Below are positions 49,745-52,851 of a DNA stretch of 64,000 nucleotides, piece by piece. The notes under the pieces are model-generated. The model was not told where the DNA came from, ran no database searches, and saw only the letters and a program-made list of their open reading frames with translations. The DNA is from Escherichia coli phage phiS. Made by a program: the position numbers and the translations under genes. The stretch lies in sequence record PP449093.1; one strand, written 5' to 3'. Every line of letters begins with the position of its first letter. Positions within the stretch are counted from its first letter, which is position 1.

Positions 49745-51119
49745 TCATTGTTAGACCTTCACGCGGCCTATATTCTTCGATGCCGTTTGCACCGTCATAT
49801 ATTACCACGGGCGCGTATTCTTCCCCCAATTCATCTAATTCCTTTCGGAATATTTCGGAGGCGATCCGCATTTCGTCTTTTCCTGCATATTCGGCGAATT
49901 TTTCTTGAGTTGTCAACCAACCAAATATTACCAGACTCATGACCAAATCATCGTGAAAACCTTCTTCTGCCGCCCAGCTTACCCCCTTCTCGGAGAATGT
50001 GCGCAACTCCTGAATAGTTCCTTTATGATTAATGATCAGCTTATCTTTTTCTATTAAGTCTTTTAGTGCCGAACATCCCATTGCTTTAGATCTTTTGGAT
50101 TGTTTCATCCCTAGATCTATGAATGAGTCGCAAATAATATTATCATATTCAAGATCCATCGCAAGAGACTTAGCAATAGATACACCCGTACTATTTAGCT
50201 CGATATAAACCGGACATTCGTTATACATCATAAGATATTTAAAGACGATATCCGGTAATATTAAATGTGACGTAGTATTGCTGTGATATACCGCGACCTG
50301 TTTATAAGGAAATTCAGTAATATCAATGATTTGCATTGCGTGATAGTCTTGTCCTCGACCTTCTGAGCAATCTAGTGTAGCAACATATTTTCTACCTTCT
50401 TTCGGTTGTTCAAATTGATAAAAACCATTATCATTAACAACGTCAATAAATGATAATCTTGATAGTGTGGTTGCCCTGATCAGAGTACCGGAACTCCCGA
50501 AAAATTCAGCGTTATGTTCCTGTAAGAATTGCTCAAGACTAGATCCGGCGATCGCCTGAGATGACCACTCATAACCATCATCGAATATATCAGCTTTATT
50601 GTAAAGACGTTCTTTAACAGAATGCCAAACCGCCTCATAAGGTACATAACCGCTTTTACCATCAATGGCAGATTGCCAGATATCATAAAAGTGATTAAGC
50701 CCGTTCGGAGTCGTTGTCATGATCATTTTAGATTCACGACCAGAAGAAATTACTGGTTGGATTGCAAGGAAACAATCGGTCCAGTTTTGAATAAATGCGC
50801 AGTTATGGGATTCTACATTGTTTGTAGTGTAATGGTTGCCATCTGCAACGTTAGTTAAATCGTATAAAAAGTCTTCACCAACATAATCTTTACTAATGAC
50901 AGTAAGGCCGGAAGACGTAACGAATCCAGCCTCGATATCATCGGCTTCTATGAAAAAGCCGTCACTTGATTTTAATTTATGGTTTTCTGAACATTCAAGA
51001 TATGATCCGTCGCTAAATGTTAGTTTCCAGATCATACCAAATGTTTCTTTTATGCCATCAAAATCTTTAAAACCGTTTTCGGTGAGAACTTCGAACCCGT
51101 CAAGATTCCAAAAGTTCAT
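49740..51119 (-). CDS. 17: Terminase large subunit, C-terminal fragment: split-intein C part (106 aa) fused to the nuclease-domain C-extein
   Basis: Residues 107-459 match the T4 gp17 C-terminal half (CAFIQNW..., [40 protein letters not shown]); first 106 aa carry Hint blocks B, F, G ending in SHN followed by Cys. Confidence 0.85.
50802..51119 (-). other. Split intein C-terminal fragment (IntC, 106 aa)
   Basis: SENH (block B-like), [23 protein letters not shown] (blocks F/G), terminal His-Asn then +1 Cys at 50799-50801. Confidence 0.8.
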
Positions 51120-52851
51120 TAATATAATCCTCGTGAATATATTCGAAAGTGTATCCGTTTTCTTTACACCATTCTATAGCGGCTTGTTCTTTCGCCATTG
51201 TTTTTGGATCTTCAACAAGTCGCTTAGGCTTAACTTCATAAACGATCTTATTATCGTGATCTACGAAGTCCGTAATATAAACGTGATTCTTTCCTTTAAA
51301 TTTGTATGTAACACGAAGCGTTTCGTATTCAATATTAACGCCTTTAGCCTTCATGTCTTTATAGAAAGCAAGTTCCCAAGAGCTACGGAAGCTATGACCA
51401 TCATACTTAATGCGGGAATGATTAAGTCGATTAGTCGTCTTAGGCGTAAATTCACCATTCAGAATACGCTGTTTAACTTGCTCTGACTGTTTAGCCCTTT
51501 GTTCTGGTGTTTTCTTACCGTTGCACTTTCTGCGCATTTCATCGCCGTTTTCGACGTATAGACGTTTCATTGCCTCGCCTTGTTTGGCGTAACCACATTT
51601 ACGGCAAAGATAACCCTCATTTTTAACAGCATACATCCCGCATTCTGGACACTCAAAACGCCGGAAGATAACCATTTTCGATGATATTTTCCCTAAGCGT
51701 CCAGGCAATTTTTCTGTGCAGTAGTTATGACATTTATCCTTATAGTATGGACCATTCTTGCTTAATTCCACACGGCAACCACATCCTTTTGTAGAGCAAA
51801 CAGGACGCTCCAGAATATCATTTGTCACACATGCGATAAACTCTCTCATGGATTCGGTTTTATGAAAATGCGTGTCGAAAAACTCTTTGTATTCTTCCAA
51901 CATATCCATAGTTACGCCAGGAACCCAACCGCGAGTCAAGTTTGGATTTTTTGCGTGTGGCAGTAATAACTCTTTAATTTTATTCAACTTTTGCTGAATA
52001 GCCATCATCTTAACCTCTAACATGGTGTATTCTTTAACTTCACCTGTTAGCTTATCACGCAATGTAACTTTGGTCAAGCCGCTAACGCATTCGTCAATGT
52101 AGATAAATGAGAACGAGTTACCGCGCACGGCATCAGGAGACGACGCATAAGCACCAATACTTGAACCGTTTTCAAGAACAATTGATTTCTTGTTCCATTC
52201 AACAATACCTGGCTGTAAGAAGTCTGGTAATAGTTCAATTGCTTGTTTAGTACGTTCTAGAACCTCAACTGCCATTGATCCTTTGTGTGCCAGTATACCT
52301 ACCGCTTTGTCTTTATTAAAACAAACGTAGTGAGCAAGGAATATTGCTACAGCGGTAGTTTTCCCTAGCTGACGTGATAGTTTATGTGCGCTCATGCGGT
52401 TTTCATGCATGATCTTAAGCATATCTTTCTGATAATCACGCAATTGTACTTTGATTGTACCGTAGTCGATGTGTGTAATTGCGCAATAGGTTTCTGCGAA
52501 ATATACAATATCTTTACGGCATCGTTTCCACTCTGCGATCATTTCAGGGGTATACTGAGTTTTAATATTCGCCCTTCGCAAGTTCTTTAACCGCATATAC
52601 CGCGTGCGAATATTGTCACTATCTTTAAAGAACTTATAATTTGTTGGATCAGTGCTTTGCATCCTTATTTTCTGCGGTCTGTTTAATTTCAGATAGTCAG
52701 AAAACTTTTTAGGATACCATTTATCATCATGCTTTGATAAAATCCATTCAATACCATTTGAATCAATTTTAGTTTCTAGTGTAGACGGATGAGCTAAATA
52801 TAGCGGGTGTTCATCCGTCGCCATTGCGTTAATCCCTTCAATCACGCTCAT
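51100..52851 (-). CDS. 17: Terminase large subunit, N-terminal fragment: ATPase N-extein (254 aa) + split-intein N part (about 25 aa) + fused zinc-ribbon/PD-(D/E)xK nuclease-like module (about 300 aa)
   Basis: Walker A SRQLGKTT, Walker B FIYIDE, then [12 protein letters not shown] (intein block A) right where T4 gp17 reads IYIDECAF; ORF ends with TGA overlapping the ATG of the C fragment. Confidence 0.85.
51103..52014 (-). other. Nuclease-like module fused in frame to IntN (candidate homing endonuclease)
   Basis: Four CxxC-type pairs ([23 protein letters not shown]) and C-terminal PD-(D/E)xK-like [19 protein letters not shown]. Confidence 0.6.
52015..52089 (-). other. Split intein N-terminal fragment (IntN, about 25 aa)
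   Basis: Cys codon at 52087-52089 immediately after Walker B Glu; [26 protein letters not shown]. Confidence 0.75.

Follow-up and report, generated by a model that had tools for sequence, protein, structure and literature searches.

A predicted PD-(D/E)xK nuclease in frame with the N-terminal fragment of a split intein in the large terminase gene of Escherichia coli phage phiS

The DNA analyzed is a stretch of 64,000 nucleotides from Escherichia coli phage phiS (record PP449093.1), referred to as the window; positions are counted from its first letter. The region considered here is that of an RB49-like, T4-type coliphage of the genus Krischvirus and lies in a late-gene block in which every gene is on the minus strand, in the order gp13, GIY-YIG open reading frame (ORF), gp14, gp15, gp16 (small terminase), gp17 (large terminase, TerL) and gp18. 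The top database match is Escherichia phage kaaroe, with 96.7% identity across the 3.1-kb TerL region. The TerL gene, a conserved enzyme gene, is split at IDE|CAF by an intein, and a nuclease coding region is located between the two halves on the same strand. The gp17 of RB49 is colinear with both exteins, its ...FIYIDE being directly joined to CAFIQNW..., and the 254 and 353 residues of the exteins add up to 607 aa, the length of RB49 gp17. The locus contains the following features.

51100..52851, minus strand: N-terminal ORF of 583 aa, consisting of TerL-N, the N-terminal intein fragment (IntN) and 304 codons without a stop, and ending with TGA at 51100-51102
52090..52851, minus strand: TerL (gp17) N-extein, residues 1-254, ending FIYIDE in the Walker B region (Pfam Terminase_6N, 1.7e-25)
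52015..52089, minus strand: IntN, 25 codons, with the block A strands and the start of helix 1, placed by alignment to mini-inteins and stop-ended IntN ORFs
GAGG 52014-52017 and ATG ATG 52003-52008, minus strand: candidate internal start of the nuclease, aligned to free-standing homologues
51103..52014, minus strand: homing-endonuclease-like module, 304 codons (912 nt), in frame with IntN
51100..51132, minus strand: nuclease/IntC junction, with GAGGA at 51128-51132, the ATG of the C-terminal intein fragment (IntC) at 51117-51119 and TGA at 51100-51102
49740..51119, minus strand: C-terminal ORF of 459 aa, consisting of IntC and the TerL C-extein
50802..51119, minus strand: IntC, 106 codons (MNFWNLDG...NNVESHN), with blocks B (CSENH), F and G
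49740..50801, minus strand: TerL C-extein, 353 codons plus stop, beginning CAFIQNW (Pfam Terminase_6N, C-terminal half, and Terminase_6C)

The first-pass annotation of this DNA, made from the letters alone, had placed a module of about 300 codons in frame directly behind a 25-aa IntN. This was borne out, as 304 codons without a stop follow IntN at 51103-52014. The other two frames of the module contain 13 and 38 stops, and by simple arithmetic the chance of an open frame of 304 codons is approximately (61/64)^304, or about 5e-7. The same two ORFs with the same 20-nt overlap were found in six isolates (kaaroe, vB_Eco_SAP, TB34, G2494, JK32 and GoldenSnicker) and in metagenomic contigs, indicating that the layout is not a sequencing or assembly artefact.

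A profile search of the 304-aa module against nuclease families, the check suggested by the first-pass annotation, returned two Pfam matches above the curated cut-offs: TnsA-like_N (PF08722) at 3.3e-9 (37.6 bits, cut-off 26.5) and Phage_endo_I (PF05367, T7 endonuclease I) at 2.5e-7 (30.9 bits, cut-off 29.1). In PHROGs, the module matched phrog_15427, "endonuclease," at 1e-48. T7 endonuclease I aligned to module residues 208-262 (phmmer against PDB), with E214, D249, E260 and K262 of the module falling on the catalytic residues E20, D55, E65 and K67. The C-terminal motif, which had been ascribed to a restriction-endonuclease-like fold, aligns with D55, E65 and K67 of this enzyme and represents the D...ExK portion of a PD-(D/E)xK site. 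The catalytic residues were invariant or nearly so among 67 and 150 relatives. The parts of the module are located as follows.

51715..52014, minus strand: N-domain, module residues 1-100, with three helices and Cys4 site 1 (AlphaFold)
51724-51801, minus strand: Cys4 site 1, formed by C72, C77, C93 and C97 (C72-x4-C77, C93-x3-C97)
51595..51654, minus strand: zinc ribbon 2, CPEC...CRKC, formed by C121, C124, C137 and C140 (weak match to Pfam Zn_ribbon_3)
51103..51417, minus strand: PD-(D/E)xK core, module residues ~200-304
51373-51375, 51268-51270, 51235-51237 and 51229-51231, minus strand: catalytic codons of E214, D249, E260 and K262, respectively

The proposed combination of a zinc ribbon with a PD-(D/E)xK nuclease-like domain was upheld by the two Cys4 sites, the Pfam matches and the conserved catalytic residues. 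The four cysteine pairs counted earlier are present and make up two conserved Cys4 sites, but only two of the pairs are strictly CxxC. The cysteines of zinc ribbon 2 are kept in all TerL-associated homologues, including a free-standing form of 199 aa. The AlphaFold model of the module had a pLDDT (predicted local distance difference test score) of 91.9 and a pTM (predicted template modeling score) of 0.58; it came from the final run with a 67-sequence alignment, an earlier run with 11 sequences having been weak at residues 45-170 (pLDDT 62). In the model, a Cys4 knuckle belongs to a helical N-domain (residues 1-100), after which come a linker of low confidence, a zinc ribbon followed by three helices, and an alpha/beta core (residues 200-304). 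The helices of the N-domain span residues 2-20, 36-49 and 56-64 with pLDDT above 90. The N-domain is homologous in Shewanella phage Thanatos-2 and in the proteins P0013 to P0018 and is missing from the 199-aa form. It matched no known family in Pfam, PHROG or PDB and is presumed to be the DNA-binding part.

On these matches, the module is assigned to the TnsA_N/endonuclease I branch of the PD-(D/E)xK nucleases, and DNA cleavage is predicted. Its wider family comprises 1561 representatives at E <= 1e-3, which are TnsA/endonuclease-I-like zinc-ribbon nucleases and mostly uncharacterized; the Pfam scan of relatives covered selected long proteins among the 150 top relatives. The module shares its fold and the E...D...ExK constellation with the N-terminal domain of TnsA (Tn7) and with T7 endonuclease I. 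These are a transposase subunit and a junction resolvase, respectively, whereas the module occurs in a homing context and adds a helical/Cys4 domain and a zinc ribbon. A Vsr-like (EDxHD) family was considered as well and rejected: EDxHD is absent from the conserved columns, no Vsr-family Pfam match was obtained at E <= 1, and the likeness is in fold only. Unlike I-Bth0305I and other EDxHD homing endonucleases, the module has the classical PD-(D/E)xK pattern.

Between the window and kaaroe, the module differs by 27 synonymous and 6 nonsynonymous codon changes, and IntC by 14 synonymous changes and 1 nonsynonymous change. Relative to L028 and L029, two more distant copies of Krischvirus type that share 80% and 88% protein identity with the module, the ratio of nonsynonymous to synonymous substitution rates (dN/dS) was 0.08-0.26 in each subdomain. 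Over all copies compared, with dS reaching about 3, the subdomain values spanned 0.02-0.26, and those for the module 0.05-0.26. For the N-domain, dN/dS was 0.08-0.23 at a dS of about 1-3 between Krischvirus variants. The low ratio in every subdomain indicates that the module frame is translated and constrained as a protein. Judged by these ratios, the whole fused frame is under purifying selection over a long divergence. It is therefore hardly credible that the open frame is an accident, whether from a recent frameshift, an error of assembly or decay into a pseudogene, with the region past IntN not meaningfully expressed. The ease with which the states of this locus are interconverted, by one-nucleotide changes, would suit such an accident, but dN/dS well below 1 and the high-confidence fold would not, nor would 304 open codons beside such stop-rich alternative frames or ORF lengths that are identical in six independently sequenced isolates and several metagenomes.

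Mosaicism was also observed in the nuclease. Compared with L028 and L029, the N-domain and the zinc-ribbon middle (window 51595-51900) differ, with a dS of about 1; in the same comparison there are hardly any differences in IntN, in the first ~54 residues or in the nuclease core. This pattern suggests that nuclease variants differing in their DNA-binding parts have recombined.

The joined 25 and 106 residues of IntN and IntC matched 6dsl_B, the consensus atypical TerL intein CatC, in PDB (E 2.4e-12, phmmer), and the DnaE and gp41-1 inteins were weaker matches. A PDB search with IntN alone gave zero matches. The intein motifs are intact, i.e., Cys1, block B (CSENH), the F block, the terminal HN (ESHN) and Cys+1. 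The 25-residue IntN aligns with the stop-ended IntN ORFs of loci L017, L020, L022 and L033. It also aligns with contiguous mini-inteins, over their first ~27 residues; these are inserted at IDE|C as well and come from Desulfovibrio phage 7757, Vibrio phage vB_VmeM-32 and Campylobacter phage CP21. In the mini-inteins, a linker of 5-19 residues joins these first ~27 residues to the IntC equivalent, indicating that the split and the nuclease are located in the loop after helix 1. AlphaFold modeled IntN with strands at residues 7-11 and 18-22 and a helix from residue 23.

On the basis of its PDB match and motifs, the intein is classified as a member of the atypically split AceL/GOS/Cat-TerL family. 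AceL-TerL (IntN of 25 aa, IntC of 104 aa), GOS-TerL (IntN of 37 aa, trimmable to 27) and Cat (30/104 split; PDB 6DSL) all splice in trans. Like these, the phiS intein has a TerL host, a short IntN with block A only (25-37 aa), a long IntC (104-122 aa) and Cys1/Cys+1. Those inteins came from metagenomes and were used as free fragments, while the phiS IntN carries a C-terminal passenger of 304 residues and occurs in cultivable coliphages. We infer trans-splicing activity from the intact catalytic residues, the purifying selection and the viability of the carrier phages.

The element was found in 6 of ~48 Krischvirus records, and the site is uninterrupted in about 42. Kaaroe and JK32 differ by 8% in their C-exteins (87 of 1062 nt) but by 0.5% in the element (6 of 1288 nt). 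The exteins of kaaroe differ from those of the element-free RB49 at 7 of 1824 nt. A silent GAT>GAC change at position -4, 4 nt upstream of the insertion point, was carried by each of the three element-bearing alleles examined and by none of the six empty ones. Sporadic presence, a near-identical element in diverged backgrounds and a linked single-nucleotide polymorphism are the usual footprints of homing, and the element looks mobile. As is typical of a homing endonuclease, its occurrence is sporadic, its site is a conserved one in an essential gene, and there are signs of horizontal transfer. A scan of viral contigs with the IntC alignment gave 3 loci, two of which are known isolates.

A second, independent homing-endonuclease-like gene lies a few kilobases away. 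It is a free-standing GIY-YIG ORF of 194 aa (54952-55536, minus strand) between gp14 and gp13, and it matches Pfam SegE_GIY-YIG (8e-7) and, weakly, the I-TevI DNA-binding domain.

At the downstream junction of the element, the ATG of IntC is located 17 nt before the nuclease stop, giving the 20-nt ORF overlap, and a GAGGA is located 8 nt upstream of this ATG. This GAGGA falls within the codons for the conserved C-terminal ED of the nuclease, as it does in all relatives. The overlap of the nuclease stop with the IntC start, with GAGGA ahead, suggests that IntC-TerL-C would be made by coupled re-initiation. No T4 late-promoter consensus was found inside the element; the only one nearby, TATAAATA, is at 49737-49744, ahead of gp18. 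Between 49600 and 53400, no terminator-like hairpin was detected and sigma-70-like sites were not enriched.

These features also bear on whether the nuclease still homes. It may have been kept merely for unbroken translation from TerL-N to the IntC start, or recruited to aid packaging, which is quite improbable. The lack of an internal promoter or terminator would fit continuous translation, as would the position of the IntC GAGGA within the coding sequence of the nuclease C-terminus, and in the fused form TerL-C needs a single re-initiation event (one coupling step rather than two). However, purifying selection has conserved the catalytic residues together with both zinc sites, and the sporadic distribution, the near-identical element in diverged backgrounds and the insertion-linked silent change point to ongoing mobility. 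Moreover, most Krischvirus phages package DNA without the element. The idea that the module is a third functional piece of a composite element found no support, since no evidence for a role beyond homing was obtained.

Among relatives, the nuclease occurs in several arrangements. In the long free-standing form (287-302 aa; P0013, P0014 and P0015), the IntN ORF ends in a stop (e.g., directly after ...IEDLLNEFG), and the ATG of the nuclease is located 14 nt ahead of this stop in a different frame. In the short free-standing form of 199 aa, found between the TerL halves of HY03, phiR1-RT, TG1, PspYZU05, SG1 and other phages, the N-domain is absent, and the end of the IntN ORF (ALAITQKEAK...) represents what is left of the nuclease N-terminus. 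This form is 49% identical to the module over module residues 108-298, and its ORFs overlap at both junctions. It shares the TerL site, the intein family and a homologous nuclease with the window but has three ORFs instead of two and a deleted N-domain, which is intact in the window. A nuclease fused to IntN as in the window is present in Thanatos-2 (39.5% identity) and in P0011, P0012, P0016, P0017 and P0081. In Thanatos-2, the nuclease is intact and fused, with neither a Met nor a Shine-Dalgarno (SD) sequence at the junction. The opposite half-fusion was found in P0028 (L033 1903-5047), in which nuclease, IntC and TerL-C form one ORF of 848 aa and the stop-ended IntN ORF overlaps the nuclease start by 14 nt. 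The close relatives P0018 and P0016 differ at the junction only by an in-frame TAA versus GAA.

Thus, the states found at this one TerL site are the empty site, the contiguous mini-intein, the free-standing nuclease, the IntN-nuclease fusion and the nuclease-IntC fusion, that is, all but the fully contiguous one. In a neighbor-joining tree of the nuclease, fused and free forms are interleaved, requiring at least 3 switches. A first tree had hinted that the fused form is ancestral, but this was lost with more taxa as the states interleaved; only the 199-aa form is clearly derived, via deletion of the N-domain.

Comparable fusions were found elsewhere. In Vibrio phage 1.244.A (Ackermannviridae; L016 628-3778), an atypically short IntN (CVWGETKILLNDPESSIMFETGIEQAYKLMA) is in frame with a GIY-YIG nuclease in an ORF of 653 aa at another TerL site, and the IntC ORF overlaps by 11 nt. 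In metagenomic genes for the UvsW helicase (P0113 at L032 31-2879; P0061), a canonical IntN of ~88 residues is in frame with NUMOD3 and a TnsA-like nuclease, and the next ORF, with an ATGA overlap, encodes an IntC of 35 residues and UvsW-C. As read from these ORFs, the fusion of IntN to a nuclease extends beyond the IDE|C site of TerL and beyond the nuclease family of the module.

Further inteins were noted in the TerL genes. In the metagenomic protein P0081 (435 aa), the IntC belonging to an upstream intein is joined through an extein of 8 residues (CSLLYIDE) to the IDE|C IntN and the fused nuclease, indicating that this TerL would be assembled from three pieces via two split inteins 8 residues apart. 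The TerL of Campylobacter phage CP21 (L015) apparently has three inteins, of which the first is a mini-intein at Walker A, another is split and accompanied by a free-standing ORF, and the third is the contiguous one at IDE|C. In Campylobacter phage CPX (L014), the IntC-TerL-C ORF follows the gp13 gene, so TerL-N must be encoded elsewhere. A different, contiguous intein of 331 residues is located at the Walker A site of TerL (QLGK|...|TTA) in the other Krischvirus phages ELT3 (L003 1501-4317), MIZ4, MIZ5, FL15 and AV108; its first residue is Ala (ALDVNTP...) instead of Cys or Ser, and its last residues are THN. In P0011, a single gene contains both the fused split intein and this Walker A intein, the latter with another middle part.

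At the upstream junction, MMAIQQ had been put forward as a possible internal start. The lead held up: both Met codons of the window align with Met1, the initiation codon, of the free-standing P0013, P0014 and P0015, and the upstream GAGG(A), which derives from a Glu codon of the IntN helix, is conserved. The mRNA around the IntN/nuclease junction (51950-52070, minus strand) has a predicted fold of -31.1 kcal/mol (z = -4.3) that pairs GAGG and both ATGs. In four homologous sequences no compensatory changes were found, the inner hairpins being conserved and the outer stem not. The junction RNA structure is only a lead.

These signals raise the main rival to a functional fusion, in which the nuclease is made mainly from the internal start at 52003-52008 and read-through from IntN is a tolerated by-product that gives an inert tail leaving with the intein. 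Besides the aligned Met codons and the conserved GAGG, the interleaving of fused and free states on the tree, with one pair separated by a single stop codon, would agree with it. So would the trimming of the GOS-TerL IntN from 37 to 27 residues, according to which splicing needs nothing past ~25 residues. Nevertheless, the nuclease of Thanatos-2 is fused and intact with a junction that has no Met or SD, and ribosomes coming in frame from TerL-N would cover the internal site of the window anyway. The predicted base pairing of the SD and the ATGs also argues against strong internal initiation, but this evidence is weak, as it comes without covariation. We therefore consider this alternative unlikely as the main route, and it is not exclusive of the fusion.

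The locus resembles the fractured genes described by Dassa, London, Stoddard, Schueler-Furman and Pietrokovski in 2009 (PMC2677866), which are phage enzyme genes broken by a split intein with a nuclease gene between the halves. In those loci, IntN ends in a stop and is followed by 27-51 nt of noncoding DNA and then a free-standing GIY-YIG or Vsr-like nuclease, whose 3' end overlaps the IntC start by 6-69 bp (PMC2677866). The statement in the first-pass annotation that the nuclease is free-standing in known fractured genes was accurate. The window has three of the four defining features, and the broken TerL, the same-strand nuclease and the 20-bp overlap with IntC correspond to the published loci; its split is also at the same point as that of a gp17-like terminase in the 2009 study, which was fractured "at an unusual point" (PMC2677866). 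What it does not have is a free-standing nuclease behind a stop and a spacer, as IntN runs on without either, and its nuclease is of the TnsA/endonuclease-I-like PD-(D/E)xK type. Step IIIa of the model in that study, loss of the flanks of the nuclease gene, could bring the nuclease in frame, and no example was presented (PMC2677866). A 2025 preprint on actinophage inteins proposed the same in-frame route via small indels.

Like bifunctional inteins such as PI-SceI, the element has a nuclease that would be translated as part of the intein and is predicted to leave the host protein on splicing. Unlike in those contiguous intein-endonuclease polypeptides, however, the chain stops after the nuclease, with IntC in a separate ORF; the nuclease follows helix 1 instead of being located between blocks B and F, and it is not of the LAGLIDADG or HNH type. 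The in-frame arrangement is a fresh variation on the fractured-gene layout, half-way from a nuclease gene of its own to a nuclease that is part of the intein, and natural half-fused forms are apparently undescribed, which is absence of evidence only. The literature search found no description of a natural half-fused IntN-nuclease; an earlier mention is possible, with key subscription papers (the original AceL-TerL and GOS-TerL papers; Aranko 2014) lying outside the search. Inteins were stated in a 2024 paper to be unreported in coliphages (PMC11162368).

In the most probable explanation, the module acts as the homing endonuclease of a mobile element of the fractured-gene type, inserted in TerL at IDE|C, and in this lineage the nuclease frame has merged with that of IntN. 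The anatomy of the locus, the nuclease fold and catalytic residues, the selection on the frame, the intein family and the mobility footprints are taken as established for this explanation. Ribosomes translating TerL-N would read through IntN into the nuclease, yielding an N-precursor of 583 aa. The SD and ATG-ATG, inherited from free-standing ancestors, may also give some stand-alone nuclease. The overlap of stop and start, together with the GAGGA from the terminal ED of the nuclease, would couple synthesis of IntC-TerL-C by re-initiation. IntN, with its two strands and a helix, would dock on the 106-residue IntC and complete the Hint fold; in the AlphaFold model the IntN helix runs on into nuclease helix 1, which would keep the passenger clear of the Hint fold. 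Trans-splicing would yield TerL of 607 aa and free the IntN-nuclease of 329 aa, still bound to IntC, equivalent to a bifunctional intein whose backbone is nicked once. In mixed infections, the nuclease would cut intein-less TerL alleles near the insertion site, and repair would copy the element in.

The fusion is regarded as functional and not accidental because Thanatos-2, whose junction has no Met or SD, has retained it, as have P0011, P0012, P0016, P0017 and P0081, because the same logic occurs in Vibrio phage 1.244.A with a GIY-YIG nuclease and at the canonical site in UvsW, and because the carriers among the phage records are all viable isolates that need TerL. Several points weigh against it. 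The 583-aa precursor, splicing and cleavage are predictions from sequence, and a passenger of 35 kDa might slow assembly of the Hint fold. Pfam recognized no intein domain in the C-terminal ORF; the intein was assigned to its family by the PDB match and by its motifs. Independent translation of the nuclease is plausible given the retained SD and ATG-ATG, exactly where free-standing homologues start. Switching between the fused and the free state is easy, as the TAA/GAA difference between P0018 and P0016 illustrates, and the state could be close to neutral.

The suggestion that a homing endonuclease had been caught while invading an intein did not hold, as the frame has long been under purifying selection, the fusion recurs in Thanatos-2 and several metagenomic lineages, and the states are interleaved. 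By this comparison, the IntN-nuclease fusion is a stable, recurrent alternative state of the mobile element and not a snapshot of invasion. A broader and more doubtful proposal, which we put forward tentatively, is that half-fused split inteins, with the nuclease joined either to IntN or to IntC as in P0028, form a functional, recurrent class. With the empty, mini-intein and free-standing states of this TerL site, they would make up a living series of the steps that turn free-standing nucleases into intein domains. In the strongest version of this proposal, if true, tethering matters: the nuclease would be delivered 1:1 with TerL and would be free or active only after IntC has been made and splicing has taken place, which would tie homing to late expression.

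How inteins acquired homing endonucleases is an old question that has so far been answered by models, in which a free-standing nuclease gene invades an intein and the flanks of the gene are then lost. The present locus is valuable for its series of states, some of them separated by single-nucleotide toggles, which all occur at a single TerL site and within one family of inteins and one of nucleases. Among the carriers are coliphages that can be grown on E. coli K-12, such as kaaroe on strain MG1655, so that splicing with a 35-kDa passenger, internal initiation, cleavage and homing frequency are directly measurable. The large family of TnsA/endonuclease-I-like zinc-ribbon nucleases is hereby brought into the intein field, and the arrangement suggests that atypically split inteins tolerate a large C-terminal cargo on an IntN of 25 residues.

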